The notes under the pieces are model-generated. The model worked only from the letters and a program-made list of their open reading frames with translations. It had not been told where the DNA came from and searched no databases. A DNA stretch of 64,000 nt. Origin: a virus. Lineage: Duplodnaviria; Heunggongvirae; Uroviricota; Caudoviricetes. The stretch is taken from the IMG/VR virus record IMGVR_UViG_3300022562_000399. One strand, written 5' to 3'. Position numbers and translations under genes: made by a program. Each line of letters starts with the position of its first letter. Position 1 is the first letter of the stretch. This document shows, one piece after another, positions 11,026 to 59,871 of this stretch.

Positions 11026-11054
11026 AGAGTAAACCCGATCCGCCCCCATGTCAA
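11026..11054 (-). promoter_or_regulatory. Promoter: TTGACA-N17-TACTCT
   Basis: ggctgcTTGACAtgggggcggatcgggttTACTCTcatactgtacggagcaaGGAGGcaccATG. Confidence 0.55.
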
Positions 11055-11256
11055 GCAGCCAGCTTCTCGATCTCCAAGACCTCGGTCTTCATCCTGGTGG
11101 CAGAGCCGAACGCCTTGTGGGCCTTCTTCTCTCCCTCGACTCGCTCGCACCAACGATTAGCCGATGCCAGCGACGGGAAGCGGATGGAGTCCTTTATGGG
11201 AATCCCCGCCAAGTTTCCGTCCAGGTAGGTTCGGATGAAGTGAACTCGAAAACCGA

Positions 11257-11544
11257 TCATGCTGGCCTCCTTGCCGCAATCTTCGCAGTGCCCTCGGGCA
11301 CCAGTTCGCCGTAGAACAGATCCATCTCCAGGGGAGCACACGCCACCAAGTCCTTCTCGTCGAACATGCACAGCTCGATGGCGCCCGGCTTGGTCTCCGT
11401 GTCTCCGTCCTTCTTCACCGCGTTGGCCACGATCACGCCGTTGGTCACCCGCGCCACCTTCACCCTCCTGGTGATCTCCTTGGCCCCGCCGCCCTCAAGA
11501 GCAACCCGGAACCGGACGCGATAGAATCTCCCAGGAACCATCAT
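11257..11544 (-). CDS. Hypothetical protein
   Basis: Trimmed from ORF 11257..11604. Follows the promoter at 11564-11591. Confidence 0.3.
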   Translation of the reverse strand: MMVPGRFYRVRFRVALEGGGAKEITRRVKVARVTNGVIVANAVKKDGDTETKPGAIELCMFDEKDLVACAPLEMDLFYGELVPEGTAKIAARRPA

Positions 11545-11563
11545 CTCTCTACCCACACCTAGA

Positions 11564-11591
11564 GGGTAAGCCCTGGGGCCTGCCAAGTCAA
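11564..11591 (-). promoter_or_regulatory. Promoter: TTGACT-N16/17-TACCCT
   Basis: Flanked upstream by the palindrome copy at 11599-11614. Confidence 0.45.
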
Positions 11592-11598
11592 GCCCCTT

Positions 11599-11614
11599 TT
11601 GCAACTATCTTCAC
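11599..11614. repeat. 16-mer variant TTGCAACTATCTTCAC adjacent to a promoter
   Basis: 10-mer core GCAACTATCT. Confidence 0.45.
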
Positions 11615-12513
11615 TTCTCCCAGATCTGGTTGCCGTCGGGGCTCGGGTGCACCGTAGCCGTGGACACGGAGGGGGCCTTCTCCTTGATCAGGAAGCCCTT
11701 GGACGTGCGCACGTAGCCCCTCGGCGGGGGCTCCTGGGCGTCGGCCAGGTAGGGCTTCGTGATGGGCTCTCCGGGCAACTGAGGCAGCCCCTCGTTCAAG
11801 GGCTTCCACCGCTCGAACTCGTCCTGGTAGCCGGTCCAGTGCCGGTCGTGGTTGCCCCAGTGCTCGCCGTGGCCGCGCCCCTTGTACGACCTCGTGCTGG
11901 GGGATGCCGCCTTGCAGGCGTACCGCTCGACCAGGAACGCGATCTGTTCCTTGGTCTCGACCGCGTGCTTGCAGTAGTTCTCGCGCACATACTTGATCGG
12001 GTCGGGGTCGATCTCCAGGACCGACACCAGCGCCGCCAACAACATGCCCGTGCGACCGTGTCCGCCGATGCAGCCAACGTGCACGGCTCGTCCTTCTTGG
12101 ATCTCTCCGACCAGCCACAGCACCATCCGGTGGAATGATTTGGGGTCACTCGGCTTGTGCCCGTCCGTGATCTCGTACTTCACGCGCGTGGGTCCAGACT
12201 TCGGTGGCTCCCATGGCCATGGTGCGTCCGCTTGCATCCAGCGGTCCAGCCCCACGTACACGTCACACCCATCGAACACTGGGTCCGAACACGAGCCGCC
12301 GAACAGGTGGCGCCCGTTGCCAAGGGGGAGGGGCCGGTGCGTGTACGCACACTTGGAACTCGACAGCTTGCGACCCAGCGCGTGGACCACGCGCCCAGAG
12401 TACCAACTGCCCACCTGCAACGAGGACAACGCCCCGCGCTTCTCTTCTCTCACTGCCGCGAGGCTCACGACCTCGGCGCCCAGCTTCTTGCTCTTGCCTT
12501 TGTGCTTGCTCAC
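11611..12513 (-). CDS. Cys-based protein phosphatase (PTP/dual-specificity fold, CX5R)
   Basis: Active-site P-loop VHVGCIGGHGRTGMLLAAL. GTG start with AAGGAG RBS just after the upstream TAG. The first ~100 aa of the listed ORF is a junk extension. Confidence 0.6.
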   Translation of the reverse strand: MSKHKGKSKKLGAEVVSLAAVREEKRGALSSLQVGSWYSGRVVHALGRKLSSSKCAYTHRPLPLGNGRHLFGGSCSDPVFDGCDVYVGLDRWMQADAPWPWEPPKSGPTRVKYEITDGHKPSDPKSFHRMVLWLVGEIQEGRAVHVGCIGGHGRTGMLLAALVSVLEIDPDPIKYVRENYCKHAVETKEQIAFLVERYACKAASPSTRSYKGRGHGEHWGNHDRHWTGYQDEFERWKPLNEGLPQLPGEPITKPYLADAQEPPPRGYVRTSKGFLIKEKAPSVSTATVHPSPDGNQIWEK

Positions 12514-12521
12514 TCCTTCTC

Positions 12522-13625
12522 CTACGCCGCCATCGCAGCGGCCGGGACGTACTTCCCGTCCTCGGTTCTCACGAACTTCTTCACGTACACACCAGGCGCC
12601 ATCTCGTAAAACCCGGCCTTGTTCTCCTTCGCCATCTTCACGGTCTTCTCGATCTCGGTGGCTTCCGGTCCGCCCAGCTTCTTGGCGTAGGGAGTGGCGA
12701 GTCCGTAGGTCTTCGCCTGCAACTTCTTCTCCGCCTCGTAGTGTCCGTTGACCGCACCAAGCGCAGTGACTTTGTACCAGTCCACGTACTCGCCGAACCT
12801 CACCCACGGCAACCACTTCTTGACGGTCTCCAGCACGAGCCCCATGCCAATCGTTCCGTGGGTGTTGCCGGTCCCCGCAATGTACTCGGGGATCTGGCCC
12901 GACCTCTGCACGTCCAGGATGCGCCCTAGCTCGTGGGTGTAGCCACCGAAGAACAACCCCTTGTTGAAGATCGGCCCGTTGTTGTGGGCCAAGGTGAACG
13001 CGGTGTCCACCATGTTCTCCAGGCTCGCTTCACCTCTCAGCACTCGCGCCAAGCACGTGGTGATCTTGCCCCAGGGCTTGCCTCCGAAGCCCCCGGAGAA
13101 CGACCCGTGGAAGAAGCCCCACTCGATGGCACCGAAGAACTGCGCCACGGTGCAGGCTGGGGGGTTGTTCATCGTCTTCGAGTAACCAGCCTCCTCGCTC
13201 CCGCCCTTCAACGAGATCACGTGATCAGTCGCTTCGTTGCCGAACTGCTTCCGCATCTTCTCGGCTCCACTGCTACCAAGCGACATGTGCCGGATCTCAC
13301 GGATCGTGATGTAGCACAGGTAGTGGAACATGCGGAGGGCCGAAGCACTGCCGATCTCGTGGAACGAGTTGACGGCCGAAGCCGCCCCTGGGTCCAGAGG
13401 CTCGTGCTTGTCGTACCGCCTCACCACTTCGCCCAGCACGTGCTGCACCAAGTAGAACTTGACGGCCTCCAACTCCGGGCTAGGGTCGCCCTTCAAGTTC
13501 GCCCTGGCCTCCTTCGCCTGGGCTGCCCAATCCACCATCGACGAGGAGCCAAGGTCGCGAACGACCGTCAGCGGTCTCGCTCCTATCTGGTACGCCAGCG
13601 TGTCATGGGATGCGATCAGTGACAT
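12522..13625 (-). CDS. Hypothetical 367-aa protein with a Gly-rich motif
   Basis: Clean ATG with AAGGAGG RBS. Motif FSGGFGGKPWGKITTCLARVLRGE. No recognised catalytic signature. Sits between the two phosphatase paralogs. Confidence 0.45.
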   Translation of the reverse strand: MSLIASHDTLAYQIGARPLTVVRDLGSSSMVDWAAQAKEARANLKGDPSPELEAVKFYLVQHVLGEVVRRYDKHEPLDPGAASAVNSFHEIGSASALRMFHYLCYITIREIRHMSLGSSGAEKMRKQFGNEATDHVISLKGGSEEAGYSKTMNNPPACTVAQFFGAIEWGFFHGSFSGGFGGKPWGKITTCLARVLRGEASLENMVDTAFTLAHNNGPIFNKGLFFGGYTHELGRILDVQRSGQIPEYIAGTGNTHGTIGMGLVLETVKKWLPWVRFGEYVDWYKVTALGAVNGHYEAEKKLQAKTYGLATPYAKKLGGPEATEIEKTVKMAKENKAGFYEMAPGVYVKKFVRTEDGKYVPAAAMAA

Positions 13626-13660
13626 GGTGCCTCCTTGCGTTCACGTCTCAGTACACCTTG

Positions 13661-13689
13661 AAAGTACACCCGCCCGTCGGTTGTGTCAA
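13661..13689 (-). promoter_or_regulatory. Promoter: TTGACA-N17-TACTTT
   Basis: taggggTTGACAcaaccgacgggcgggtgTACTTTcaaggtgtactgag. Confidence 0.55.
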
Positions 13690-14165
13690 CCCCTAGCTGA
13701 AAAGAACTTGGCCCACAGCCGCTCGGCTCCGTAGTAGATCCGCAGCCAGAACACGGGGAAGGTCGCCACGAACCGCTCCTGCTCGTTCGTCTCCACGGCC
13801 TCCACACGGTAGTTCTGGCGCACGAAGTCGATGGCCTTGGGTCCGTTCAGGCCCTCAGTCACTCGTGCCACCAGGGCCAACAGCGTGCCCGTACGACCCC
13901 ACCCGAACCCGCACCCGACGTAGACCTTGTGGCCGTAGATCAGGGACCGCAGGACGAACCGCACAGCCTCCTTCACGGCCTCCAGATCCGTGGGCACTCC
14001 GAAGTCCGGCCAGTCCACCGTGAGGTTGGCAGGTCGCTTGTTGTTGGCCGCCAGGTTGACTCCCAGGTGGGTGGTCGGCTTGTCAAGATACGGACCGGCC
14101 AGGATCTCGCCTCCGGACGTTTCCATGGGGGTGGCACACGGGGCGCCTTTCAGATAGCTCTTCAT
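13686..14165 (-). CDS. Cys-based protein phosphatase paralog (CX5R)
   Basis: VYVGCGFGWGRTGTLLALV. The downstream segment IDFVRQNYRVEAVETNEQERF parallels IKYVRENYCKHAVETKEQIAF in the first phosphatase. ATGA overlap with the upstream gene. Confidence 0.6.
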   Translation of the reverse strand: MKSYLKGAPCATPMETSGGEILAGPYLDKPTTHLGVNLAANNKRPANLTVDWPDFGVPTDLEAVKEAVRFVLRSLIYGHKVYVGCGFGWGRTGTLLALVARVTEGLNGPKAIDFVRQNYRVEAVETNEQERFVATFPVFWLRIYYGAERLWAKFFSARG

Positions 14166-14428
14166 CGTCTTCGTAACTCCGCTCGAAAGATCTTGATAGC
14201 ACGGGGGGCGTCGAACATCAAGCGCACGCGCCACGGGTACAGGTCACCACTCGGGCGCAGCTTGCACTTCACGTCCGGCAGAATTTCGGACCACTCGTCC
14301 GTGGTGATCGGGATGAACTTGTCGCCCCCAACCTCCAACTCGATGCAGTCCTTCATGATCACGGCCACAGTCGCAGGCGTGTCCCCAACGAAGACCGTGT
14401 GCGATTCTTTCAGTGTCAACGTCAACAT
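14162..14428 (-). CDS. Small hypothetical protein (88 aa)
   Basis: ATG 3 nt after the PPDK-like stop. Trimmed from 14162..14497. Confidence 0.3.
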   Translation of the reverse strand: MLTLTLKESHTVFVGDTPATVAVIMKDCIELEVGGDKFIPITTDEWSEILPDVKCKLRPSGDLYPWRVRLMFDAPRAIKIFRAELRRR

Positions 14429-14430
14429 GT

Positions 14431-16329
14431 TCACTCCTTGCCTACCACTGCGAACACCGCAGCTTCCTCGGTCACCGCTTCCTTGACCATCGCGCATCTC
14501 TTGCCGAAGGTCTTCAAGATCGCCTCGGCTGCTTCCTTCGATCCCGCAGCTTCCACGAACCGCGCGTCTATCGCAATCGGATCTCCGCTACCAGCAGCCG
14601 CCAGAAGATCGGCCGTGTTGTTCACGGTCCTCGCGACCTTGTACCCGCAAGCAACCAACACCTTCACTTCTTCGTCGCTCGCGCCGTTGATCACCAAGCC
14701 CTTCATGGGTCGGTCGCACAGGTCGTTGATCAGGGCATCTCTCTCGGCCTCCTCCTTGGTGAGGTAGCTTTCTCCAACCAGGTTCCACAGTCTCGCGTCG
14801 CCCGCGTCTCTGTAGCCCCACGGACCGGCCAGGTTTAAGGTCACCTTCTTGGTCTTGCCCAGCTTCTTGTACGCCGCTCTGAACTCCTTCATCTTGGCCA
14901 GGGCCTTGCCTTCGGTGATCCAGTCCGCAACGTCCACGACCATGTCATTGGCCACCAGCTTGGCTCCCTTCCTGGTCACCGCCAACTCGGCCAGCGCCCA
15001 CTTTATCAAGACCTCGACCGCTTCGTCAGTCGCGCCGTCGATGATCTTCGGACCGTTCTCCGCGTGCCACACATTGCCGGTGCTGCCGTCCATGGTGATC
15101 GAGACCCCTTCGAGGTTGTCAATCTCCAGGTCGGTGGCGCCCACGATGCAGGGCTTGTCCAGCGATCTCGCGACAACTGCCGCGTGGCTGGTCGCGCCTC
15201 CGGTTCTGGTCAGCACACCCGCCGCCTTGATCATGTCGCCAAGGTGCTCGGGGCTGGTCTCTTCCGCGATCAGGATGTCACCCGGCTCGATGTTGCCTGG
15301 GGTCTTGGCCACTCCGGTCACGACTCCGTTGCACGCCGCGATCCCAACCACGTGGGCAGGCACCGCGTTGGTCGGGTCGATCATGGGCTTCCTGCTTGCC
15401 AAGAACTGCTTGCCGGTGATCCTGGCCAGGGCCTCCTTCCTGGTGATCAGTCCCTCGTGCTCCATGTCCACTGCAATCTTGATCGCAGCCTTGGCAGTCC
15501 TCTTCGCTGCCCTGGTCTGCAAGAGGTACAGCGTGCCGTCCTCGATGGTGAACTCCACGTCCTGCACGTCTCGGTAGTGCTTCTCCAGGTTGGTGACCAA
15601 ACCCAGCAACTCCTCGTGAAGGTGCTTGGGCAACTCAGTCAACGGCTTCGGGGTCCTGGTTCCGGCCACGACCTCTTCGCCCTGGGCGTTCATCAAGACC
15701 TCGCCCATCACGATGTTCTCGCCAGTGGCCGGGTGCCTCGTGAAGAGAACGCCCGACCCGCTGTTGTCGTTCATGTTGCCGAAGACCATCTTCTGGATCA
15801 CAACCGCAGTCCCCATGTTGTGGGGGATGCCGTTGTGCTCTCTGTAGATCACGGCACGCTCGTTGCCCCAGCTTTTGAACACGGCAATCACGGCCGCGAA
15901 GATCTGGTGCTTCAAGGTCGGACCGGGGTGGCAGCCGACCACGTCCAGGAACATGGCGTCCAGCCTCTTGTTGCAATCATCTGCAACGGCCGTCGGCAGT
16001 CCGTGGTTCACGCAGTTGGCGCCGACGTTCAGGATCGTGTCCATCATGCCTGGCATCGAGACCGGAGCGCCCGACCTCACCGCCCACAACGGAGCCTTGC
16101 CGAAGTTGGGCAGAGCCTCCACCAGGTGCATGATCTCGTCGATCATCTCCTCGACGACGACGACTCCGCGCTCCTGGAAGTCCAGGCAGGCAGAGGTTGG
16201 GATGATGATGGCGTGGGGAACCGGCAGGCCGTTCTGGGTCATTTCGACAAGGCCAGCGCCCTTGCCTCCCAGGATCGCCTTGTCCGGCTTCCCGTCAAAG
16301 TAGCTCGTGTTGTAGATCGTGTGCTTCAT
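14431..16329 (-). CDS. Pyruvate-phosphate-dikinase-like enzyme. It has the PPDK N-terminal nucleotide-binding domain and the phospho-His swivel domain but no PEP/pyruvate TIM barrel. The C-terminal ~190 aa is unknown
   Basis: PPDK signatures LGGKGAGLVEM, GLPVPHAIIIPTSAC and RSGAPVSMPGMMDTILNVGAN. Catalytic His motif TRTGGATSHAAVVARSLDKPCIVG. Ends at 632 aa with no barrel domain. ATG with RBS, and the promoter at 16360-16393 lies upstream. Confidence 0.75.
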   Translation of the reverse strand: MKHTIYNTSYFDGKPDKAILGGKGAGLVEMTQNGLPVPHAIIIPTSACLDFQERGVVVVEEMIDEIMHLVEALPNFGKAPLWAVRSGAPVSMPGMMDTILNVGANCVNHGLPTAVADDCNKRLDAMFLDVVGCHPGPTLKHQIFAAVIAVFKSWGNERAVIYREHNGIPHNMGTAVVIQKMVFGNMNDNSGSGVLFTRHPATGENIVMGEVLMNAQGEEVVAGTRTPKPLTELPKHLHEELLGLVTNLEKHYRDVQDVEFTIEDGTLYLLQTRAAKRTAKAAIKIAVDMEHEGLITRKEALARITGKQFLASRKPMIDPTNAVPAHVVGIAACNGVVTGVAKTPGNIEPGDILIAEETSPEHLGDMIKAAGVLTRTGGATSHAAVVARSLDKPCIVGATDLEIDNLEGVSITMDGSTGNVWHAENGPKIIDGATDEAVEVLIKWALAELAVTRKGAKLVANDMVVDVADWITEGKALAKMKEFRAAYKKLGKTKKVTLNLAGPWGYRDAGDARLWNLVGESYLTKEEAERDALINDLCDRPMKGLVINGASDEEVKVLVACGYKVARTVNNTADLLAAAGSGDPIAIDARFVEAAGSKEAAEAILKTFGKRCAMVKEAVTEEAAVFAVVGKE

Positions 16330-16359
16330 GGCTTCCTTGCCTTGGGTCTCTCGCTACGG

Positions 16360-16393
16360 TCTCAGTATGCTCACAAATCGCGAGCCGTGTCAA
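16360..16393 (-). promoter_or_regulatory. Promoter-like: TTGACA ... (CA)TACTGA upstream of the PPDK-like gene
   Basis: agagggcTTGACAcggctcgcgatttgtgagcaTACTGAgaccg. Confidence 0.4.
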
Positions 16394-16626
16394 GCCCTCT
16401 CTCGTCGGATGGCGAAGTCCTTGTGCTTTGCCGCAGCCAGGCTGGGCATCCTCTCACCCTCTCTCTCGGGGTCGGGGAAGTAGTGCACCCCGCTGGTGGC
16501 GAAGTCCGTGATCATGGCTCGGCCGTCTCGCCGGATGTAGCGCCGATCTCCGTTGCCGTACTCCACCACGCTCCACTCGCCTGCCTTGCGCACTGGGTAG
16601 CCATAGCTTCTGGGGTCAATCTTCAT
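16390..16626 (-). CDS. Small hypothetical protein
   Basis: ATG with GGAGG RBS. Its own consensus promoter at 16650-16678. Confidence 0.4.
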   Translation of the reverse strand: MKIDPRSYGYPVRKAGEWSVVEYGNGDRRYIRRDGRAMITDFATSGVHYFPDPEREGERMPSLAAAKHKDFAIRRERA

Positions 16627-16649
16627 GGGGCCTCCTTGCCTCTACTGTG

Positions 16650-16678
16650 AATGTAACCCCTGGGCTCCCCTTTGTCAA
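16650..16678 (-). promoter_or_regulatory. Promoter: TTGACA-N17-TACATT
   Basis: gtaggtcTTGACAaaggggagcccaggggtTACATTcacagtagaggcaaGGAGGccccATG. Confidence 0.55.
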
Positions 16679-16681
16679 GAC

Positions 16682-18586
16682 CTACTTCGTGGGTGGTCCC
16701 AGGAAGAGGGCTCCGGAGTCGTCCACCACGACCTCGATCACGGTCTCCTCCGGGCACGATCCCAGGTGGACCGCGATGTCCGGCATGGCCACCGGCAGGT
16801 AGGCACCACCCCCCAGGGCCGTCCACACCGCGATGGTGTCGCGCCCCTCCAACTCCTTCAACACGAGGGTCGGGCTCAAGTACATGGTGCCAGGCTTCGA
16901 CTTCTTTGGCATGGGGGGCACTGGTGCCTGTGTGGCCCCCTCCAGCCCGATCACATCCAGGAGGTTCTTGTCCATCTTCGCCAGCTTTTCAATGGCGTGG
17001 TGATGGATCTCCTGTAAGGCGTCGTGATTCACCGTGACACTGGCCAGCGGGGACTTCCCGAACTGGTTGGGGAAGTACGAGTCCTTGCTTTTGAAGAAGG
17101 CCATCTTCTCCAGGTGAGCCTTGCAGATCTGGTGCCATGACTCCTGGTGCGTAACCACTTTCTTCGGTGGGCCCAGGTCGCCCAACGTCGGCATGGACTG
17201 TAGGTCGGAGATGTGCTCGATCTCCTCCACGTCAGCAGGCCACCCTGGGCAGTGCTGGTAGTCGCACGTCAACCCGTGCTTGTAGCCTTTGGGCCCGAAC
17301 TCCGGTGGTGAGTACGCGCCGTCTGGGTAGGTCTTGATCAAGTACGCGAAGAACCCCGCCCAGGCCTTGCCGTAATGGAGGTGGCACAGGAAGTGGAACT
17401 GGGAAAGGTTGAACCGAATTTCGTGGTGGTGCCCTGTCTCCTTGTCGTGTTGGTGCAGAGTGTAGAACGACGACGAGGCGTCCCGCGTCAGGTGGTACGT
17501 CACGGACTCGCACTCCAACAGCGCGGGAGTTTTGACACTACTGTCCACCACCATCGAGAACTTCGGGTTGATCACGTACGGGTCGGACTTCTTCCCCAAC
17601 GCCTTAATGTACTGCTCGGGCTTCTTCGACTTCGCCGCCATCATGACCGCGTGGTTGACACAGACGATATGAAAATTGGGATTGTCGGCCGACATGCCAA
17701 GCACTGGTGGAAACCCTGGGCACGATGGAGCCTTGCACTTCTTCGAGTCCTTCGAGATTCCCCCGCTGGGCATGATGGTGCACACAAACGAGAAGAAGTC
17801 GAAGTCGTCGGCCAAGTACATCGTCTCGTGCAGATAGTGCAACTGCTCTTTGGTCACCGCGATCTCGTGCGGTTCGGCCTTCTGGTAGTTCTCGATCTTG
17901 TAGGAGTTGTAGATCGGGTTGTGGGTGATCTTGAAGACCTCCACTCCGTGCTGCCACACGCTACTCGGAATCGTCCACGCCTTGGGTCCAAACGAGGGCC
18001 ACAGCTTCTTCTTCATGTTCACGACCGTGTGCTCCATTGCGCAGAAGTGATGGACTCCCGCGTCGATGTCTTCCGCGAACCCGGCACCCAGGTGATAGTG
18101 CGGCCACCCTGGGCAGTTCTGATACAGACACCCCGCGCCCTCGACGAAGGACACGAGGGGGGCCGGGTGATTCGTGGCCATGTGGTTGGGCGGCCCCATC
18201 GTTGGGTGGTCGGGGTAGTTCTCGAACAGCCACCGCGCGAAGGCGATGTTGGTGTGGCTACTCATGGGAGACGTGGGGCCAAACAAGGCGGCCTTGGCAA
18301 TCATCCCCACTTGCGCGCATTGCGGCTCCGTCAGGACCAGCGAACGAGGCGCGAACTTCTTCGACTTCGACCTCCGCGTGATCATCGTGACCATGTTCGC
18401 GATGTCTTTCTCGAACTCGTAGATCACGTCGTCCTCGTCCGGCGCCCCGATGATCAACTCCTTGCTTGCTGGCTCGTACGCCTTCATGAAGGCGCCGAAC
18501 GACAGGTCCGTGTTCTGCACAGACTTTGACAGGGAGTCGAGGCCCCACCCCATGTTGTTCAGGGACTCCGTGAGCTTCTTGGCCAT
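16682..18586 (-). CDS. Large His/Cys-rich hypothetical protein with three CPG(W/F)P repeats
   Basis: Repeats LYQNCPGWPHYHLG, KAPSCPGFPPVLG and DYQHCPGWPADVEEIEH. Many His clusters (HHHEIRF, HHHAIEK). Trimmed to the ATG at 18586, which lies after the upstream TAA. Confidence 0.45.
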   Translation of the reverse strand: MAKKLTESLNNMGWGLDSLSKSVQNTDLSFGAFMKAYEPASKELIIGAPDEDDVIYEFEKDIANMVTMITRRSKSKKFAPRSLVLTEPQCAQVGMIAKAALFGPTSPMSSHTNIAFARWLFENYPDHPTMGPPNHMATNHPAPLVSFVEGAGCLYQNCPGWPHYHLGAGFAEDIDAGVHHFCAMEHTVVNMKKKLWPSFGPKAWTIPSSVWQHGVEVFKITHNPIYNSYKIENYQKAEPHEIAVTKEQLHYLHETMYLADDFDFFSFVCTIMPSGGISKDSKKCKAPSCPGFPPVLGMSADNPNFHIVCVNHAVMMAAKSKKPEQYIKALGKKSDPYVINPKFSMVVDSSVKTPALLECESVTYHLTRDASSSFYTLHQHDKETGHHHEIRFNLSQFHFLCHLHYGKAWAGFFAYLIKTYPDGAYSPPEFGPKGYKHGLTCDYQHCPGWPADVEEIEHISDLQSMPTLGDLGPPKKVVTHQESWHQICKAHLEKMAFFKSKDSYFPNQFGKSPLASVTVNHDALQEIHHHAIEKLAKMDKNLLDVIGLEGATQAPVPPMPKKSKPGTMYLSPTLVLKELEGRDTIAVWTALGGGAYLPVAMPDIAVHLGSCPEETVIEVVVDDSGALFLGPPTK

Positions 18587-18602
18587 CTTTTGGGCCGTCT
18601 TC

Positions 18603-18857
18603 TTATCGGGTAGTGCCACACTCCGCCTCCAACTCTCGCGCCAAGTTCTCCATCTCGATCTCCGCCTTGGCAATGGACTTCAACACTTCCCACCTCGACC
18701 GCCGATCCTCGCCTGTCAGGATGCGGAAGCAGTGCGTGCAGAACCAGATGATCTCTCGGTCCCACAGGTCCCGAAGAATGCCGATCTTGCGGCGACTCTT
18801 GTCCTCTCCGCAGAGGCAGCACTCCGGAGCCAGGGTCTCATGGAAGCAGCTTGACAC
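18603..18857 (-). CDS. Small Cys-rich (zinc-finger-like) protein
   Basis: CCLCGEDK...CTHC pattern. Confidence 0.3.
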   Translation of the reverse strand: MSSCFHETLAPECCLCGEDKSRRKIGILRDLWDREIIWFCTHCFRILTGEDRRSRWEVLKSIAKAEIEMENLARELEAECGTTR

Positions 18858-19196
18858 GCTACTGAGTGCGCCACACGCGCACGCCCCCGCTCACGGCTCG
18901 GACCGTGTGGTTCTGCTCGGGGGCATGTCGCTTGCGGAACTGGTTGGCGCCCGACACCAACGAGGCGCGCACGGACGACAGGTCCGCCTTCTTCGGGACC
19001 GCGACGAAGAACGAGTCTCCGACGTTCAGCTTGTTCCACGGGTACAGCTTGCGCTTGTTTCCCATCCCGCGTCTGGGCAGGGGCACGTTCTTGTCCACTT
19101 TGATCATCGCATCCAACACCATGTTGTCTTCCTCCTGTACGTATACGACGAGGGCCCGCAAGGGCCCTCGCCAGTCTTCGGTCTCTTGTCTCCTGG

Positions 19197-19433: not shown

Positions 19434-19450
19434 GTCTCGCCTACAGTTTC

Positions 19451-19479
19451 AAGGTACGCCTGGGAGGCTCCTTTGTCAA
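19451..19479 (-). promoter_or_regulatory. Conserved phage promoter: TTGACA-N17-TACCTT
   Basis: ggtaTTGACAaaggagcctcccaggcgTACCTTgaaactgtaggcgag. Confidence 0.55.
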
Positions 19480-19525
19480 TACCCATCCCGATCTTTTTTC
19501 GCGTCCTCACGTTGGGCCTTGTCGA

Positions 19526-19888: not shown

Positions 19889-19903
19889 GCTTCCTCCCTT
19901 AGG

Positions 19904-24064: not shown

Positions 24065-24083
24065 AGCTACTACGCACAGGCAC

Positions 24084-24113
24084 AAAAAAAGGGCGACCCC
24101 ACCAGAGGGCCGC
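24084..24113 (-). terminator. Rho-independent terminator
   Basis: Minus strand reads AAGGGCGgccctctggtggggtCGCCCTT followed by TTTTTTT. Lies just after the stop of gene 24152..24556 and before the promoter at 24035-24064. Confidence 0.6.
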
Positions 24114-24151
24114 CCTTCGTGATACCTCGACTGGCCGGTCCATCGTAGCCG

Positions 24152-46170: not shown

Positions 46171-46694
46171 GCCTCGGTTGCAACTATCTTCACTTCTCGG
46201 GCTCCCCACCTGGCCACCCAGTAGGCGTCCGCCGTGTCCTGGGGCAAGTCCAGGCCCGTAGCCGCCTTTGCGCCCTGCCGGGACAACTCCTTAGGGGCCA
46301 GTCTCAGCAGCTTGAGGTGGGGGTACAACCGCTTCACAAGGGCCTGCCATGAACTGGGGTGGACCGTCATGTAGAGGGCTCGGTGCCGGATCGCCGCCTC
46401 CTCGATCATCGTACGGATCGTGGCCAGCTTCTTGGCCACGTCCAGCGACCTCGACATGGGGTCCTCGATAGCCACCACCACGTGGTCCACCTGCAACTGC
46501 TTGGCGTGCATCCTCCACATGGCTGCCAAGGGCTCGATCTCCTCGCGGATGCGCCCCCGCCTCTCCTCGAAGTCTCCCTTGGGGTAGTTCATGGTGCCGT
46601 GCGATTGCAGACTCTCACCGTCCAGCAACGCCCACCCGATGATCTGGCTGCCGGGGTCCACTCCGATCACGATTCTGGGTTGGTCGTCACTCAC
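46167..46694 (-). CDS. RuvC-like Holliday junction resolvase
   Basis: RIVIGVDPGSQIIGWALL, HVVVAIEDP and DTADAYWVARW. GTG start overlapping the upstream TGA. Confidence 0.65.
   Translation of the reverse strand: MSDDQPRIVIGVDPGSQIIGWALLDGESLQSHGTMNYPKGDFEERRGRIREEIEPLAAMWRMHAKQLQVDHVVVAIEDPMSRSLDVAKKLATIRTMIEEAAIRHRALYMTVHPSSWQALVKRLYPHLKLLRLAPKELSRQGAKAATGLDLPQDTADAYWVARWGAREVKIVATEA
46178..46193. repeat. 16-mer variant TTGCAACTATCTTCAC adjacent to a promoter
   Basis: Same arrangement as at 11599 and 53845. Confidence 0.45.
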
Positions 46695-49946: not shown

Positions 49947-49949
49947 GCC

Positions 49950-53012: not shown

Positions 53013-53467
53013 GCCTTGCCGAAGGTCGCCCTACGCGAGCCTGGCTCCGTGGTCACGTACTTGTCCGCCTCTGCGTCGGACAGCGCCGCGTCCAGCTTTG
53101 CCAGCGGAATCTCCAGGAAGGCGTACGGGTCAGCGCCCGTTGCCTTGATCGCCGCCAAGGCTCCCTTCTTGTCAGTCACCTTGCGAGCCTTGGAGCACGG
53201 GGAGACGTTCAGCATCGTGCCGTCCGTGCCAATCACCGTGGCGTCTTCGTAGTCTCCGAGCCCTTCCGTGACCTCTGCCACCAGCGCCTTCTTCGCCTTC
53301 TCGAAGGGGTCGATCACCGCCTTCTTGAACTTCTTGATCTCGGCGTCGATTGCCGCCAGATCCGCTACGCGGGATGCAAGCGTCGTCTCTCCGTCCCCAT
53401 CGGTAAAGATGTCCGGCAAAAGTTCGTATGCCGCCGCATCCTTGGTCTTCTTCTTCTTCGCTGCCAT
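53009..53467 (-). CDS. Hypothetical protein
   Basis: ORF. GTGA overlap with the primase start. Confidence 0.3.
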   Translation of the reverse strand: MAAKKKKTKDAAAYELLPDIFTDGDGETTLASRVADLAAIDAEIKKFKKAVIDPFEKAKKALVAEVTEGLGDYEDATVIGTDGTMLNVSPCSKARKVTDKKGALAAIKATGADPYAFLEIPLAKLDAALSDAEADKYVTTEPGSRRATFGKA

Positions 53468-53602: not shown

Positions 53603-53808
53603 GCCCTATCGGTCGAAGTCGAAGAAGATGTCCTCGGGCTCGAAGTCGTCGGGGGCGTTCCCCCGGTCGTTGCCGTCGTTGGCGTAGACCGCGTACTCGT
53701 CGCACATGCCCTCGATCTCCTCGTCCGTCAGGCCGTCGTAGTTGCCTTCCGTGAAGCCGAACAGGTTGGGTCTTGCGTCTTCCATGACTCGTTCCTCCCT
53801 ACAGTTCC

Positions 53809-53844: not shown

Positions 53845-53860
53845 TTGCAATTATCTTCAC
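53845..53860. repeat. 16-mer variant TTGCAATTATCTTCAC adjacent to a promoter
   Basis: One mismatch in the core. Confidence 0.4.
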
Positions 53861-55709: not shown

Positions 55710-55725
55710 AGTGCAGATAGTTGCA
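55710..55725. repeat. 16-mer (reverse orientation) GTGCAGATAGTTGCAT immediately upstream of the RBS of gene 55146..55700
   Basis: Reverse complement ATGCAACTATCTGCAC. Confidence 0.45.
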
Positions 55726-55833: not shown

Positions 55834-56823
55834 TCACTGGTCGCCCCAGACGAACGGCTTTGGCTTCTGGAGGGCTCCAGACGCTTGCGAGGGCCCAGAG
55901 TCCTCCGGGGACCCGTTCGTCGCTCCTGGCAAGCTACGCGCAGCCACGGACGATTCTCGCCACAAGGCGATGGCCGCCAGGGGAAACCGACCCAGGTCGT
56001 GGAAGCACGGAGCCTTCGAGGTGCCGAACCCTCCGAAGTCGTTCTTGGCCGTGGCGCAGAACGAGGTCCAGTCTTTCAGGACCACCACGAGCACTTCACT
56101 CGCCGGGATCTTGTTCTCCTTGCAGGTGCCCAGGAACAACTTGGCGCCAGCCATCTCTCGGCCACTCATGGCCAGGTGGTCGCCTTTGTAGACCCGCTTG
56201 TAGATGCCGTGCAGCTTGTGACAAGACTGCTCCGTGCACGCCATGAGATCGGCCAGCTTCTTCTTGCTCTTCTCTCGGACCATGCCTTCTGCTTCCGATG
56301 CCTTCATGCTCTCTCCGTCTTCTTGACCACCGGCAATCTCCTCTTCAACCCCCGGTTCTAAGATCCTCTTTAGATCCATTAAAGGAGGGGAGGCCGTACC
56401 ACCGGCAAAAACTCCATCGACCAGCGGCAATGATTGCCGGTGGTCAGCCTCTTCGATTGCCGGTGGTCGGACCACCCAAGCCTTCACGATCTTGCCTTTG
56501 CCAACTCTCTTGTTGGTCGTCTCCTTCTCGATCAGCCCAGCCCTTTGCAGGTCCGAAAGTGCCAACCGGATCGTGCGCTCCTTGTATCCGGTGCGCACTT
56601 CCCACACCTCAATCGGCCATGCCACGCAGGGCTCGCCGGTGGACGACTTCTCCACCGACTTCGGCGCCAGCCGTTGCACGAGACCAAGCACAACTGATGG
56701 GGCTGTGTCAGAACGAACAGGGGAGGCCCCTTTCGAGACCTCCCCCGCCGCGTGCGCCCCCAACCCAACCGTCCTCTCCTTCCGCGTCTTTCCTACCGAC
56801 GGGAAGCGGATCACCTCACCCAC
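55834..56823 (-). CDS. Winged-helix DNA-binding protein (replication-initiator-like)
   Basis: ERTIRLALSDLQRAGLIEKE wH motif. GTG start with GGAGG. Confidence 0.35.
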   Translation of the reverse strand: MGEVIRFPSVGKTRKERTVGLGAHAAGEVSKGASPVRSDTAPSVVLGLVQRLAPKSVEKSSTGEPCVAWPIEVWEVRTGYKERTIRLALSDLQRAGLIEKETTNKRVGKGKIVKAWVVRPPAIEEADHRQSLPLVDGVFAGGTASPPLMDLKRILEPGVEEEIAGGQEDGESMKASEAEGMVREKSKKKLADLMACTEQSCHKLHGIYKRVYKGDHLAMSGREMAGAKLFLGTCKENKIPASEVLVVVLKDWTSFCATAKNDFGGFGTSKAPCFHDLGRFPLAAIALWRESSVAARSLPGATNGSPEDSGPSQASGALQKPKPFVWGDQ

Positions 56824-56853: not shown

Positions 56854-57381
56854 CTAGTGAATCTCGCCCGCAGGGGTGAGGTTCAGGAAGAAGTCCTCCA
56901 GCAGCGTGGAGTTGGGGTCCTCGGGGTCGATGGCCTGCGCCGACAGCATGGCCCCATGCTTGAACTCCAGCAGCTTGTTGAAGGTCTTGTCCAGATACGC
57001 CTTCAACTGGTCCAGGGTCAACAGGTTCGACCCCTGGGGACACATGCCCAGGATGTCGTTGGCGAACATCTCACCGAACGAGGGGGCGTTCTCCATGCCC
57101 TGCTTCAAGTCCGTCAGCGTGCCCTCGACCACCGAGCCTAGGATCACGCTCGCGCGGATCACGTCAGCCTTGGCGAACTGCACGCCCCAGTCCAGCAGCA
57201 TCTTCGGATCGCTCACCGCTTTGCCGTCCTCGCGGGACGAGCGGATGCGCAGGCCGATCAGATGGCCAGACCCCTTCTCGGTCGTGAACGGGTCGATCAA
57301 GACCTTGACTCCTAAGCACAGACCGTCGTGCTTGGCCACCACCTCGTAGTCCTTCGCTCCGTTGGTTCCCTTCATCTTCAT
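56854..57381 (-). CDS. Hypothetical protein
   Basis: ATG with AAGGAGG. Confidence 0.35.
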   Translation of the reverse strand: MKMKGTNGAKDYEVVAKHDGLCLGVKVLIDPFTTEKGSGHLIGLRIRSSREDGKAVSDPKMLLDWGVQFAKADVIRASVILGSVVEGTLTDLKQGMENAPSFGEMFANDILGMCPQGSNLLTLDQLKAYLDKTFNKLLEFKHGAMLSAQAIDPEDPNSTLLEDFFLNLTPAGEIH

Positions 57382-57411: not shown

Positions 57412-58623
57412 CTAGCTGGCTTTCTCGTCCAAGTCAACAGCCGCCTTGTTCAAGTGATACTTGACCAAAGTGTAGACCACCTGGGTCACTTCCGCGTGCG
57501 GAATGTGCGTGGTTTCGCTCTTCTTCTGCAACCAGGAAGTCAGGTACTTGTCGAAGTCGAACGGGTTCTCTATGAAGTCGAACGTCTCCAGCACTTGGTG
57601 TGCAAACGTCTTCACCTGCCCAACTGGCAAGCCCTCGAAGCGCCGCACCAGGTCGATGCGCCCAGGCCGGTAGACCTCCGGAGGGATCGCCGTCAGGTCG
57701 TTGGTTGTCATGAGAACGAACACGCGCGAGGTGTGCTCTTGCAGCCACCACAGCAACGAGGCCAGCAGGCTCGATGTGGTGCCACCGTCGTGTTGTTCGG
57801 AGAACAGCTTCTCCGTCTCGTCGAGAACGATCACGCAGGGGTCTTCTTGGTCCACCTTGGCCAGGGCTTCTCCGAGCCTGCCCTCCGACTGGCCCACGTA
57901 CTTGCCCTTGATCGCGCCCAGGTCGAGACGATACAGAGGCACGCCCCACGTGCGGGCGATGTACTTGGCAGCCATCGTCTTGCCGGTGCCTGGGGGGCCG
58001 TCTGCCATGATGCCTCGCGGGCGCAGCCGCTCGTCCGGTGGGTTGAAGAAGAACGCCTTCTCCGTCGTTGCGTACTTGTGCAGCCACGCGGGTGGGATGT
58101 ACAGCTTCTCGTTCGTTTCCACCTGCTCCAGGCCGCGCTGTTGGTTCACGAACGCCTTGCGCGTCTTGAGCATCCCCGCGCCGGACAGCAGACCGTCACG
58201 TGCTTGCGTGATGCGCACCGCCTCGCCCACTTCCGTCAACGTGAGGCCACCCAGGGCGGGCGTCAACTCCATGGCCGTGTCGGGCCCCAGCTTCTTCTCC
58301 AGCAGGGAGACCACCAGCTTCTTCGGGACTGGTAGCTGGCCGCAGTGGTGCACCAGCAAGCGATCCTTCAACGGGTTGAGGATCACCAGCGTGCTCTCTT
58401 GCTTGGCCAGCGCCGTGTACAGCGCACGCCCGTCTCCGATGCTCAGGGACTTATCGTCCAGGCCCGCGTAGAGGGTGTGGGGCTTCAACGTCTTCTCGGT
58501 TTGGCCCTTGAACTCCACGACCGTTCGGCCGGTCAGGTTGGCGATCACTCGCCGCGCGTTCAGCGTGTCAGTCGTCGTCACCGCCAGGAGCGGTAGTTGG
58601 GCCTTCACAGCTAGCTCTAACAT
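57412..58623 (-). CDS. Classical-clade AAA ATPase with N-terminal substrate-domain-like region
   Basis: Walker A GIMADGPPGTGKTMAAKYIA, Walker B CVIVLDETEK and sensor/Arg-finger region TTNDLTAIPPEVYRPGRID. Confidence 0.75.
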   Translation of the reverse strand: MLELAVKAQLPLLAVTTTDTLNARRVIANLTGRTVVEFKGQTEKTLKPHTLYAGLDDKSLSIGDGRALYTALAKQESTLVILNPLKDRLLVHHCGQLPVPKKLVVSLLEKKLGPDTAMELTPALGGLTLTEVGEAVRITQARDGLLSGAGMLKTRKAFVNQQRGLEQVETNEKLYIPPAWLHKYATTEKAFFFNPPDERLRPRGIMADGPPGTGKTMAAKYIARTWGVPLYRLDLGAIKGKYVGQSEGRLGEALAKVDQEDPCVIVLDETEKLFSEQHDGGTTSSLLASLLWWLQEHTSRVFVLMTTNDLTAIPPEVYRPGRIDLVRRFEGLPVGQVKTFAHQVLETFDFIENPFDFDKYLTSWLQKKSETTHIPHAEVTQVVYTLVKYHLNKAAVDLDEKAS

Positions 58624-58848: not shown

Positions 58849-59109
58849 CTACGCCTCCTCCTCGATCTCGCGCCAGCCCAGGATCTTGAGGTTGCGAATC
58901 CAGATCGCGACCTTGTTGGGGTCCTCGTGCAGCTCCCATCTCTCGGGAGTCTCTCCAGCCTTGGTGAGGCGGTAACGAATGCGTCCCAAACCCGCAGTCT
59001 CGAACTTGATCGTGGTGCCGTCCGGTCCTTCGTAGTGTCCAGTGACTCGTTCCATGGTTGGCCTCCTTGCCTTCACCTTCAAGGTAACTCGGCCCGCGCC
59101 GTTTGTCAA
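58849..59109 (-). CDS. Small hypothetical protein (paralog A)
   Basis: C-terminus AIWIRNLKILGWREIEEEA. Promoter at 59091-59118. Confidence 0.35.
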   Translation of the reverse strand: MTNGAGRVTLKVKARRPTMERVTGHYEGPDGTTIKFETAGLGRIRYRLTKAGETPERWELHEDPNKVAIWIRNLKILGWREIEEEA

Positions 59110-59118
59110 GCCCTACAG
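59091..59118 (-). promoter_or_regulatory. Conserved phage promoter: TTGACA-N17-TACCTT
   Basis: gtagggcTTGACAaacggcgcgggccgagtTACCTTgaaggtgaaggcaaGGAGGccaaccATG. Confidence 0.55.
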
Positions 59119-59328
59119 ACGCTCCTCCGTCCAGCCCAGCTTGGCGCAGTTCTCCGCCCAGATGGCCGCATCCGCGATGTGACGGTCGTGGGTGGCGGTG
59201 TGCTCGCCAGCGGGGTCCTCGACCAGGACCGTGACGTGCTCGGCGCCGCGCAGCACCTTGAAGGTGGCGGTCACGCCGACCGGGTTGGTGAAGCGAACGG
59301 TGTTGGTGATGTCGTTGGTGATCTTCAT
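59113..59328 (-). CDS. Small hypothetical protein (paralog B)
   Basis: C-terminus AIWAENCAKLGWTEERL. Promoter at 59368-59396. Confidence 0.35.
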   Translation of the reverse strand: MKITNDITNTVRFTNPVGVTATFKVLRGAEHVTVLVEDPAGEHTATHDRHIADAAIWAENCAKLGWTEERL

Positions 59329-59367
59329 GGCTATGTCCTCCGTGACGTTGTTCTTGCCTACAGTCCC

Positions 59368-59396
59368 AAGGTACTCCCAGGGAGCCCCTTTGTCAA
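59368..59396 (-). promoter_or_regulatory. Conserved phage promoter: TTGACA-N17-TACCTT
   Basis: gtagggaTTGACAaaggggctccctgggagTACCTTgggactgtagg. Confidence 0.55.
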
Positions 59397-59399
59397 TCC

Positions 59400-59702
59400 C
59401 TACAGAAGCCCAAGGGCTTCCATGCCCGCCAGTGTGATCCTCATGCCGTCAGCGCCTCTCACCGTCAGGCAGGGCTCGATGTACCGCTTGGCCAACAGCT
59501 TCTTGATCGCGTGGGGGTAGGCCGCCGTGCGCAGGACTCTCAGTGTCATGGGGCCGTTGTTGGCGATGGTGACCAGGGCCCAGTAGGTGGCCCCTCTCGG
59601 GTCCAGGCAAGGGTCGGTCGTCGTCACCAGGGGCTCATGGAGCAATCGCTCGATGTCCGTGGCGTCCAGGGGGTGGCATCTCTTGGCGTCCGTGCCGTTC
59701 AT
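59400..59702 (-). CDS. Hypothetical protein
   Basis: ATG with GGAGG RBS. Promoter at 59723-59751. Confidence 0.35.
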   Translation of the reverse strand: MNGTDAKRCHPLDATDIERLLHEPLVTTTDPCLDPRGATYWALVTIANNGPMTLRVLRTAAYPHAIKKLLAKRYIEPCLTVRGADGMRITLAGMEALGLL

Positions 59703-59722
59703 GTCTCATTACCTCCACCTTC

Positions 59723-59751
59723 AAGGTAGGGCATGTGGACCCCCGTGTCAA
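59723..59751 (-). promoter_or_regulatory. Conserved phage promoter: TTGACA-N17-TACCTT
   Basis: ggggTTGACAcgggggtccacatgcccTACCTTgaaggtggaggtaatgagacATG. Confidence 0.55.
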
Positions 59752-59759
59752 CCCCTTCA

Positions 59760-59775
59760 GTGCAGATAGTTGCAA
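59760..59775. repeat. 16-mer (reverse orientation) GTGCAGATAGTTGCAA next to the promoter at 59723-59751
   Basis: Reverse complement TTGCAACTATCTGCAC. Confidence 0.45.
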
Positions 59776-59843
59776 AAAGAAGCGCCCCACACTCCCCCCG
59801 CCGATTGGAGCAACCATTGGGGGAAGGGGGGCGTTCACCTACA

Positions 59844-59871
59844 AGGTAGGCCCGTCGGGGGAGTTTGTCAA
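59844..59871 (-). promoter_or_regulatory. Conserved phage promoter: TTGACA-N17-TACCTT
   Basis: Minus strand gggcTTGACAaactcccccgacgggccTACCTTgtaggtg. Confidence 0.55.

Follow-up and report, generated by a model that had tools for sequence, protein, structure and literature searches.

What a family of promoter-like sites, all lying on one strand, does in the genome of an uncultured phage is the question raised by the virus record IMGVR_UViG_3300022562_000399 (Caudoviricetes), of which a stretch of 64,000 nucleotides, called the window here, was analysed. The window covers 64 kb of a phage genome of about 103 kb, the other 39 kb lying outside it. An earlier note on this DNA had described more than 20 near-identical minus-strand promoters, each with a TTGACA hexamer at -35 and a TAnnnT hexamer at -10. 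The family was confirmed as real and highly non-random, its 23-24 members making the figure of the note a fair one, and the roughly 24 sites are probably promoters for the primary sigma factor of the host (sigma-70/RpoD class), serving early and middle genes.

Number and enrichment of the sites

The pattern TTGACA-N16-18-TANNNT was found 15 times in the window, every time on the minus (coding) strand and between positions 11026 and 59871, whereas dinucleotide shuffles contained 0.26 on average and 2 at most. The hexamer TTGACA alone was found to be unenriched (36 observed, 27 expected), and the signal therefore lies in the combination of the hexamers with their spacing. An unbiased 8-mer count of the coding strand ranked TTGACAAA at the top (11 copies against 0.33 expected, none as the reverse complement), followed by GCTTGACA, AGGGCTTG and GGGCTTGA. 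The longer word GTAGGGCTTGACA, which contains the flank and the -35, was matched 15 times at up to two mismatches (1.2 expected), with 14 of these matches on the minus strand.

A weight matrix of two blocks, with a spacer of 16-18 and a threshold of 12 bits, was found to give 22 matches above 12 bits on the minus strand and 0 on the plus strand, the comparison of strands that the earlier note had proposed as a check, and 0-1 matches in each of 20 shuffled sequences. Seven of the 22 sites (24063, 11591, 24633, 16393, 57437, 23829 and 23619) lay outside the training set. Two sites were added by hand: 44005, taken from a context listing and not among the matrix matches, and 41680, which scores under the cut-off. 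The family so completed contains 23-24 sites, with none on the plus strand, and its density of about one per 2 kb (about 24 in 49 kb) exceeds that in the examined relatives roughly tenfold.

Conserved nucleotides of the promoter sites

Column statistics were obtained from 23 sites, aligned separately on the -35 and on the -10. The -35 was found to contain TTGACA in 19 of the 23 tabulated sites (the same 19 of the final 24) and TTGACT in the other four, or in five of 24 once the hand-added 41680 is included. The spacer was 17 bp long in 22 sites and 18 bp in two. The -10 contained conserved T-12 (19/23), A-11 (21/23) and T-7 (20/23) nucleotides, and its inner positions deviated from TATAAT, with C as the third base and TACCTT as the commonest form, present in six sites and not in the seven that had been counted before. 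The A-11 and T-7 nucleotides are the -10 bases that are captured by sigma-70.

The hexamers were found to be followed and preceded by further conserved nucleotides, as the earlier note had claimed. The T-A-G-G-G-C nucleotides were significantly conserved at -6 to -1 ahead of the -35, a C preceded TTGAC in 14 of 23 sites, and A-A-g was conserved directly 3′ of the -35, followed by a G four bases ahead of the -10 and by G-A-A-A-g-T-G-n-A over bases 1-9 past the -10 hexamer. The positions +11 and +12 from the first -10 base, the expected -1 and +1 of a sigma-70 promoter, were occupied by T (16/23) and G (15/23), so that a T followed by a G or A is conserved where a purine start is predicted. The TG of an extended -10 was absent from the aligned sites. 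The word GTAGG, which occurs downstream of the -10, was found 35 times on the coding strand overall against 36.5 expected, and was rejected as a general transcript or processing signal for lack of enrichment.

The spacers were found to be unrelated to one another. On pairwise alignment they scored on average as shuffled spacers do (P=0.41), and their best pair did not surpass the best pair among the shuffles (P=0.32). About 25 of some 55 positions were conserved in the unit as a whole, so that the sites are not near-identical. The form TACCTTGAAGGTG, described before as frequent, was found exactly in two promoters, with one mismatch in one and with two mismatches in three further promoters. 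Since the spacers are free and the functional positions are conserved, the pattern argues for selection on one promoter type and not for recent duplication, and the single duplicated cassette of the earlier note has to be given up. A recently copied MITE- or REP-like repeat was rejected on the same ground, the whole unit not being shared between sites. Inverted repeats of at least 4 bp were found in 9 of 23 spacers against 4.5 in shuffles (P ~0.016, or 0.016-0.09 by measure), and an operator-like palindrome in the spacers was dropped as a candidate because this excess is marginal.

Position of the sites relative to genes

The window contains 61% G+C, and nearly all open reading frames (ORFs) with coding-like codon-position G+C were found on its minus strand, with all promoters co-oriented with the genes. 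Over 47.6-62.9 kb, the gene calls made here matched those made independently on this contig. About 94% of that region is coding, and eight of its nine promoters lay in the gaps, that is, in the remaining ~6%; the ninth extends over the final codons of the AAA-ATPase gene.

A Shine-Dalgarno sequence and a start codon were found 13-35 nt past the predicted transcript start at most sites. The Shine-Dalgarno sequence often has the extended form GCAAGGAGGC, as on the minus strand at 59060-59070, 19415-19425, 16630-16640, 13630-13640 and 11005-11015, and CAAGGAGGC was found ten times against 0.4 expected, all ten on the minus (coding) strand. The statement that a ribosome-binding site and a start codon follow within 10-40 nt is correct for most sites and fails for four leaderless-like sites, for three with long leaders and for P59871, behind which no ORF lies.

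The leaderless-like sites contain a start codon 6-10 nt past the -10. P58661 (58633..58661, TTGACA-17-TAGTGT, 15.6 bits) precedes the AAA-ATPase gene (57412-58623), the start at 58623 being 9 nt past the -10, and P49946 (49918..49946, TTGACA-17-TAGACT) precedes a gene for a MerR-like regulator (49474-49911), the ATG at 49911 being 6 nt past it; the independent gene caller chose the same starts for both. P41680 (41652..41680, TTGACT-17-CATACT), a sub-threshold candidate, is followed at 8 nt by the ATG at 41643 of a gene for a 128-amino-acid protein (41257-41643), and P30869 (30841..30869, TTGACA-17-TACACT) at 10 nt by the ATG at 30830 of a gene for a 56-amino-acid protein (30660-30830). To our knowledge, leaderless mRNAs are uncommon among phages of Gram-negative hosts.

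Leaders of 93-192 nt to the first start assigned were found at three sites. P53602 (53574..53602, TTGACA-17-TAGCTT) is followed after about 100 nt by the next convincing gene (53009-53467), and P44005 (43977..44005, GTAGGTCTTGACA-17-CATAGT), with a second TTGACA 14 nt upstream, by the next clear gene at 43094-43777. P11591 (11563..11591, TTGACT-17-TACCCT) is followed by an ORF ending at 11257 that probably starts with the ATG at 11544, read by eye, which would cut the leader to about 12 nt.

At 16-18 of the 24 sites, the preceding gene was found to end inside the motif. Its stop codon was the TAG or TAA of TAGGGC, 6 nt before the -35, in eight sites, the TGA within TTGACA in seven or eight, and the TGA of an adjoining TGCA-N6-TGCA motif in two. 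As the motif provides stops in two frames and genes run up to it, part of the TAG conservation is probably explained by these stops. Most promoters adjoin the stop codon of the upstream ORF rather than a terminator. A generic terminator scan gave no excess over shuffles and a looser one was noisy; about 3-5 hairpins followed by a T-run were convincing on the coding strand, the five so judged being those at 59783, 56719, 42529, 31208 and 24087. Terminator-like hairpins were found ahead of P59751, P24063 and perhaps P41680 only.

Proposed recognition by the host polymerase

The features expected of a primary-sigma promoter were found together in these sites: the -35, a spacer of 17 ± 1, the T-12, A-11 and T-7 nucleotides, the position of the predicted start, the placement in gaps and the co-orientation 5′ of genes. 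The claim that they drive many short transcription units is upheld in silico. A sigma-70-class holoenzyme of the host would bind mainly through the perfect -35 at optimal spacing; a consensus -35 and a 17-bp spacer combined with a minimal -10 point to recognition mainly through the contact of sigma region 4 with the -35. The minimal TAnnnT -10, in which T-12, A-11 and T-7 are kept, would then be melted, and transcripts would start at the conserved T-G or T-A pair 6-9 nt past the -10, near a purine-rich stretch, four of them beginning at or beside the start codon. The scarcity of convincing terminators suggests that early and middle transcripts are nested and largely read-through. The extra conserved bases may reflect optimisation of one promoter type, an extended consensus of the host itself and genome compaction. 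Since every copy relies on that one -35 contact, the whole set could, speculatively, be silenced by one factor that targets sigma region 4 or the alpha subunit; none of this kind was found.

Several observations weigh against host-type promoters. The -10 matches TATAAT at three of six positions only, and an E. coli-style promoter scan of 44-64 kb recovered just one of the sites, since a scan based on TATAAT misses sites in which the inner three -10 positions deviate. No A/T-rich UP element was found, the spacers contain 70% G+C, and the region from -10 to +1 is only modestly enriched in A+T, the dip of G+C around the -10 and the start being likewise modest. We know of no sigma-70 contact for a TAGGGC 5′ of the -35. 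Some members are weak and possibly due to chance, namely 23829, 23619 and 58661 by score and 41680, which is under the cut-off. Initiation by the host polymerase is a prediction from the sequence of a metagenomic genome, and both the lack of promoters at structural genes and the lack of a phage sigma factor or polymerase hold for the scanned window only.

A promoter family of a phage-encoded polymerase or sigma factor was considered and is improbable by its consensus, which is the canonical TTGACA-N17-TAnnnT of a primary sigma factor. Pfam and PHROGs scans of 40 window proteins detected neither an RNA polymerase nor a sigma domain, with about 50 small ORFs and the 39 kb beyond the window outside their scope. 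Pfam found no regulator, sigma factor or polymerase among ten early or small proteins, and a 663-amino-acid protein had no match in Pfam, PHROGs or PDB.

Distribution of the sites along the genome

The promoters were found to be restricted to the non-structural part of the genome, at 11-60 kb of the window. No promoter was present below 11 kb, where the DNA polymerase gene, the portal gene and a 1230-codon ORF are located, nor above 59.9 kb, in the tail and lysis stretch. The structural genes visible in the window contain no copies and would therefore be expressed by another route. The promoters begin right behind the lysis block, where the first 1.3 kb contains five that would drive proteins of 68-100 amino acids without a function call. 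They run on through replication and recombination genes, the terminase gene, the ThyX gene and a gene for a PPDK-like kinase, and the last promoter is at 11 kb. All sites described below are on the minus strand, and the genes named are those that each promoter is predicted to drive.

The first site, P59871 (59843..59871), contains TTGACA-17-TACCTT (39.6 bits) and is followed by a hairpin and a U-tract in place of an ORF. The hairpin, CGCCCCCC...GGGGCG followed by CUUCUUUUU (59774..59833), has a minimum free energy of -42.2 kcal/mol over 89 nt (z=-2.66). Hairpin and CUUCUUUUU together (59774-59840) lie just before the next promoter and had no match in Rfam; scans of the entire window for Rfam families and for tRNA genes were likewise negative. 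The element at 59774..59833 may be either the intrinsic terminator of the tail and lysis block or the 3′ end of an RNA of about 60 nt made from P59871.

P59751 (59723..59751) contains TTGACA-17-TACCTTGAAGGTG and precedes a 100-amino-acid gene (59400-59702), followed by P59396 (59368..59396, TTGACA-17-TACCTT) before a 71-amino-acid gene (59113-59328), with the TAG at -6 as the upstream stop. The best match of the family, P59109 (59081..59109), contains GTAGGGCTTGACA-17-TACCTTGAAGGTG (43.9 bits) and precedes a 68-amino-acid gene (58849-59055). P57437 (57409..57437, TTGACT-17-TAGGCT) overlaps the 3′ end of the AAA-ATPase gene, whose stop is the TAG of the -10, and would drive 56854-57381. P53837 (53809..53837, TTGACA-17-TACCTT) precedes a 59-amino-acid gene (53606-53785), and P46170 (46142..46170, TTGACA-17-TACAAC) a 366-amino-acid gene (45011-46111).

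P24633 (24605..24633, TTGACT-17-TACGCT) is located directly behind the gene for the terminase large subunit and would drive 24152-24556. A terminator-like hairpin, AAGGGCGGCCC...GGGTCGCCCTT with a T-run (24080..24118, -26.3 kcal/mol), was found immediately 5′ of P24063 (24034..24063), which contains TTGACA-18-TACCAT and precedes a 46-amino-acid gene (23863-24003). It is followed by the weak candidate P23829 (23801..23829, TTGACT-17-CACCAT, 13.1 bits; gene 23623-23781), by P23619 (23591..23619, GTAGGTCTTGACA-17-CATAGT; gene 23381-23569) and by P22236 (22208..22236, TTGACA-17-TAGGCT; gene 21854-22174), in which the upstream stop is the TGA within TTGACA.

P19479 (19451..19479) contains TTGACA-17-TACCTT and would drive 19197-19409, and P16678 (16650..16678) contains GTAGGTCTTGACA-17-TACATT and would drive 16390-16626. 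P16393 (16364..16393, TTGACA-18-CATACT) is the own promoter of a gene at 14431-16329 on the minus strand for a 632-amino-acid protein with pyruvate-phosphate-dikinase N-terminal (PPDK_N) and phosphoenolpyruvate-utilising mobile (PEP-utilizer) domains, matched to the PHROG 'kinase' at E=1e-136; such a PPDK-like enzyme is unusual for a phage. The remaining sites are P13689 (13661..13689, TTGACA-17-TACTTT; gene 12522-13625) and P11054 (11026..11054, TTGACA-17-TACTCT; gene 10811-10999).

The gene for the terminase large subunit (24637-26547, minus strand) is located about 19 kb upstream of the portal gene (3693-5864, minus strand), and genes of nucleotide metabolism, uncharacterised genes and about ten promoters lie between them; the paper on Rhodobacter phage RcZahn describes the same split arrangement. 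The minus strand encodes, at 62296-62925, a 209-amino-acid protein whose gene lies between those for the tail fibre and the SLT enzyme. The protein was found to contain a signal peptide and a cysteine-rich, repetitive middle part (CCTG/CCSG), and no function was found for it.

A second repeat, TGCA-N6-TGCA

The next most enriched set of words in the 8-mer count was found to belong to a second repeat, (A)GTG(A/C)AGATAGTTGCAAC, with the dyad frame TGCA-N6-TGCA. The form GATAGTTGCAAC, at up to two mismatches, gave 20 matches in the window against 2.7 expected. About 16 dyad sites were found, of which about 13 copies run with transcription and two against it. On the minus strand, copies are present at 5926-5949, 11600-11613, 15972-15985, 19905-19918, 23179-23192, 33791-33804, 36274-36287, 39425-39438, 41888-41901, 46179-46192, 50912-50925 and 53846-53859, and inverted copies at 55712-55725 and 59761-59774.

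Four promoters contain a dyad 8-9 nt 5′ of the -35. The inverted copy TGCAACTATCTGCA (59761..59774) lies 9 nt before the -35 of P59751, and copies at a distance of 8 nt are TGAAGATAATTGCA (53846..53859) at P53837, of which the TGA is the stop of the DnaB gene, TGAAGATAGTTGCA (46179..46192) at P46170 and TGAAGATAGTTGCA (11600..11613) at P11591, of which the TGA is again the upstream stop. Other copies were found directly before a Shine-Dalgarno sequence (19918 and 23192), before the portal gene (5939/5949) and inside genes.

The dyad was also found in relatives of the phage. Stenotrophomonas phage DLP5 contained 17 sites in the 40 kb read, against 1.0 expected, in the form TGCAATCAATTGCA; RcZahn contained 12 in 41 kb (expected ~1.6 per strand, form TGCAATCAAYTGCA), Rhizobium phage RHph_TM16 five in 50 kb (expected 0.8, form TGCAACATATTGCA) and a metagenomic relative, L004, three in 21 kb (expected ~0.6 per strand, form TGCAATCAATTGCA). 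It was absent from the more distant metagenomic relatives L128, L129 and L130. A full-text literature search for the RcZahn and DLP5 form found no paper, and promoters or motifs are not mentioned in the RcZahn genome paper.

The candidate binders of the dyad are a syntenic MerR-like regulator, a gp51-like helix-turn-helix protein (gene at 55834-56823) and a small zinc-finger protein beside ThyX. The gene for the MerR-like regulator, a conserved candidate, is located directly behind a gene for an SF2 (ResIII) helicase, and the same placement was found for gene DLP05_060 of DLP5 and at 19862-20278 of L129. The zinc-finger protein would be encoded by an uncalled ORF of about 66 amino acids that contains two CxxCxGxG motifs, lies at 19916-20116 on the minus strand, directly behind the ThyX gene, and terminates in the TGA of a dyad copy; in RcZahn, a gene for an 'Ogr/Delta-like Zn-finger protein' is present in the same place after its ThyX gene. 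One may speculate, at rather long odds, that the promoters are one half of a lineage-specific grammar of two parts, in which a phage protein on the dyad and on the TAGGGC and GTAGG flanks would switch the host polymerase between the early promoters and the promoter-less structural block; no account of such a switch in these phages was found in the literature just named.

Lineage, host and promoters in relatives

The AAA-ATPase, DNA polymerase and portal proteins were found to be 36-50% identical to proteins of cultured phages, the best matches being Rhodobacter phage RcZahn, Rhizobium phages RHph_TM16 and Y1_11, Stenotrophomonas phages DLP3 and DLP5, and Vibrio siphoviruses of about 80 kb. By these matches the phage is placed in the RcZahn/RHph_TM16/DLP5 lineage of siphoviruses of about 100 kb with Gram-negative hosts. 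Its gene order is that of RcZahn, with tail, lysis, AAA-ATPase and replication genes in succession and the DNA polymerase gene beside the portal gene further round. No relative was found at the DNA level by megablast of 10 kb against GenBank phages, nor any close relative in IMG/VR by a DNA polymerase search, and the best AAA-ATPase homologue among 5.8 billion proteins was 47% identical, the exact protein being located on a 103-kb contig; none of the relatives found exceeded about 50% identity at the protein level.

The earlier note had attributed the sites to the sigma-A of a high-GC host. A primary sigma factor of a fairly high-GC host remains a sound reading, whereas actinobacterial SigA promoters and an actinobacterial host are made improbable by the matches to phages of Gram-negative hosts, the synteny with RcZahn, the SLT enzyme and a lipoprotein signal. 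Nine of the ten commonest genera among matches of the SLT-type lysis enzyme were those of phages with Gram-negative hosts, and a lysis-region protein carries a lipoprotein signal peptide; together with near relatives that all infect Proteobacteria, these features point to a Gram-negative host. A search for the host with a C-terminal tail-fibre fragment gave no match in GTDB genomes or GenBank phages. DNA hypermodification was dropped as a factor, the 'DLP3' paper being about an Acinetobacter namesake and not about the Stenotrophomonas relative.

Promoters of this kind were found to be few in the relatives, at 0-2 per 21-50 kb. TTGACA-N16-18-TAnnnT was absent from RcZahn (41 kb read), L004 (21 kb) and L130, and a scan that also allowed TTGACT gave two sites each in RHph_TM16 (50 kb), DLP5 (40 kb), L128 and L129. 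RHph_TM16 contains TTGACA-17-TACCAT sites, and RcZahn a few units of its own made of a terminator, a promoter and CAAGGAGG, with the same CAAGGAGG form of Shine-Dalgarno sequence. In L128 (9932) and L129 (9945), TTGACA-N17-TAnnnT was found just before the AAA-ATPase gene, at the position of P58661, and therefore supports that weak site. These sites suggest that host-type promoters are a habit of the lineage, the large number of copies and the extended consensus being peculiar to this phage. In the RcZahn record, the 76.8 kb read of 101.6 kb (genes 1-28 left out) contained no gene annotated as an RNA polymerase or sigma factor. Two pattern scans of IMG/VR gave only single unrelated matches, and a metagenome scan gave 30 single matches, about the number estimated by chance, and no other genome with the family.

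The contig of L128 (ENA ERZ27315067, contig k141_1987890) was found to contain, at 4232-7883 and 13553-21185, a reverse transcriptase beside two mtd-like genes, likely a diversity-generating retroelement, and its DnaB and RecA genes are interrupted by LAGLIDADG/intein domains. Two near-identical, low-GC metagenomic contigs that are unrelated to the phage, Ga0114933_10021906 (2492-4500) and CEPE01113596.1 (102-1320), contain three close-set sequences TTGACA-N17-TACCTT/TATATT/TACATT, with an ATG 8-10 nt past each -10, and represent another dense promoter family of predicted leaderless type.

Alternative explanations

Three other explanations were weighed, each of them less economical than host-sigma promoters. 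In phage-specific promoters, the sigma-70 core would be necessary and not sufficient, and the non-core bases would contact a phage-encoded factor (an activator, a sigma-appropriating protein or a repressor) that sets the phage promoters apart or times their use, through TAGGGC at -42 to -37, through GAAnnTGTAGG in the start region and, at four promoters, through the adjoining dyad. The significant conservation of the flanks, with the excess of GTAGGGCTTGACA (15 against 1.2 expected) and the dyads 8-9 nt 5′ of four -35 elements, speaks for such contacts, and candidate factors are present in the MerR-like gene, which has its own promoter (P49946) and a syntenic counterpart in DLP5 and in L129, in a homologue of the helix-turn-helix protein and in the small zinc-finger ORF beside ThyX, where RcZahn has its Ogr/Delta-like gene. 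However, the core is by itself a near-perfect promoter for a primary sigma factor, each flank base contributes only 0.5-1 bit, 20 of the 24 promoters contain no dyad, and no factor was identified; the TAG at -6 and the TGA at +1 serve as upstream stops in 15-16 sites, a simpler reason for part of the conservation. Phage-specific promoters are accordingly thought unlikely.

It is more doubtful still that the sites are recombination junctions of the PeSL style, that is, short shared homologies at gene boundaries by which cassettes are swapped or duplicated, with promoter activity in a secondary role. The motifs lie exactly at gene boundaries, with the upstream stop inside the motif at 16-18 of 24 sites, many flank very small uncharacterised genes, their number is far above the 0-2 per 21-50 kb of the relatives, and a precedent exists in T4-like phages (PMC4122927). 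The contiguous identity is however only about 8-13 nt, because the spacers differ, a small length for homologous recombination; the stem-loop terminator by which PeSL is defined is present at 3-4 sites only, and no close relative was found in which motif-bounded indels could be sought. Very improbable is an array without promoter function, either of binding sites for a phage DNA-binding protein (operator- or partition-like) or of RNA-level signals in read-through transcripts. The weak excess of palindromes in the spacers (9 of 23 against 4.5 in shuffles) and the conserved flanks outside the hexamers would fit it, but that excess is marginal, and the conserved parts are two sigma-70 hexamers at canonical spacing, not palindromes, in strict one-way orientation with transcription and at a fixed distance to Shine-Dalgarno sequences and start codons.

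Comparison with known systems

The closest published parallel to these host-type promoters is found in the Cluster O mycobacteriophages, siphoviruses with a family of near-consensus primary-sigma promoters, some predicted to be leaderless, and with a separate short dyad repeat of unassigned function at gene boundaries and inside genes. The two differ in host phylum, as the relatives of the present phage infect Gram-negative bacteria, and in number, the present phage containing about three times as many promoters (about 24 in 49 kb), in one direction only. The dyads, TGCA-N6-TGCA here and TGTTCGG-N3-CCGAACA in Cluster O, are different, and no sequence or protein relationship exists.

In the PeSL elements of T4-like phages, early sigma-70 promoters border small variable genes, for which modular shuffling was proposed (PMC4122927). 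The present family is alike in its repeated early sigma-70 promoters bounding small, variable, non-essential-looking genes, and differs in the defining stem-loop fused 5′ of the promoter, which is present at 3-4 of 24 sites only. A composite motif of PeSL type was rejected, since the stem-loop was missing and most promoters adjoin an upstream stop codon.

The A1-A3 promoters of T7 and the early promoters of T5, which the unmodified sigma-70 holoenzyme of the host reads, resemble the present sites as multiple strong host-type promoters, used when infection begins, of small genes for host takeover and of replication genes. The early promoters of coliphages contain near-consensus -10 boxes in A/T-rich surroundings. 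The present sites, in contrast, contain a minimal TAnnnT -10 and a spacer of 70% G+C, and their strength presumably comes from the perfect -35. In T5, the host sigma-70 polymerase is used for all gene classes (PMC7472727).

The alpha-proteobacterial sigma-70 consensus was reported as CTTGAC-N17-CTATAT (PMC2873474). The C before TTGAC (14/23), the 17-nt spacer and the TA...T frame of the -10 are shared with it, as a resemblance only; the commonest -10 here is TACCTT and not CTATAT, and the consensus may not be that of the host. The sole hint of an alpha-proteobacterial host comes from the Rhodobacter and Rhizobium phages among the nearest cultured relatives. In halovirus HF2, experiments demonstrated promoter activity of repeated intergenic elements that are conserved along their entire length of 29-58 bp (PMC8707807); those are archaeal promoters and true repeats, whereas only the functional positions are conserved in the present phage.

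Significance of the promoter family

Repeated host-type early promoters are a well-known kind of element in lytic phages, and the proposed mechanism is standard. The family is mildly unusual in its high density, in the combination of a perfect -35 with a minimal -10, in the embedded upstream stops and in the four transcripts predicted to be leaderless. It provides a likely map of early and middle starts, with about 24 points, for an uncultured phage (about 103 kb) whose lineage has received little study, and a naturally occurring set of promoters that share -35 and spacing and are graded in their -10 and start regions, which may serve as a parts list for high-GC Gram-negative hosts.

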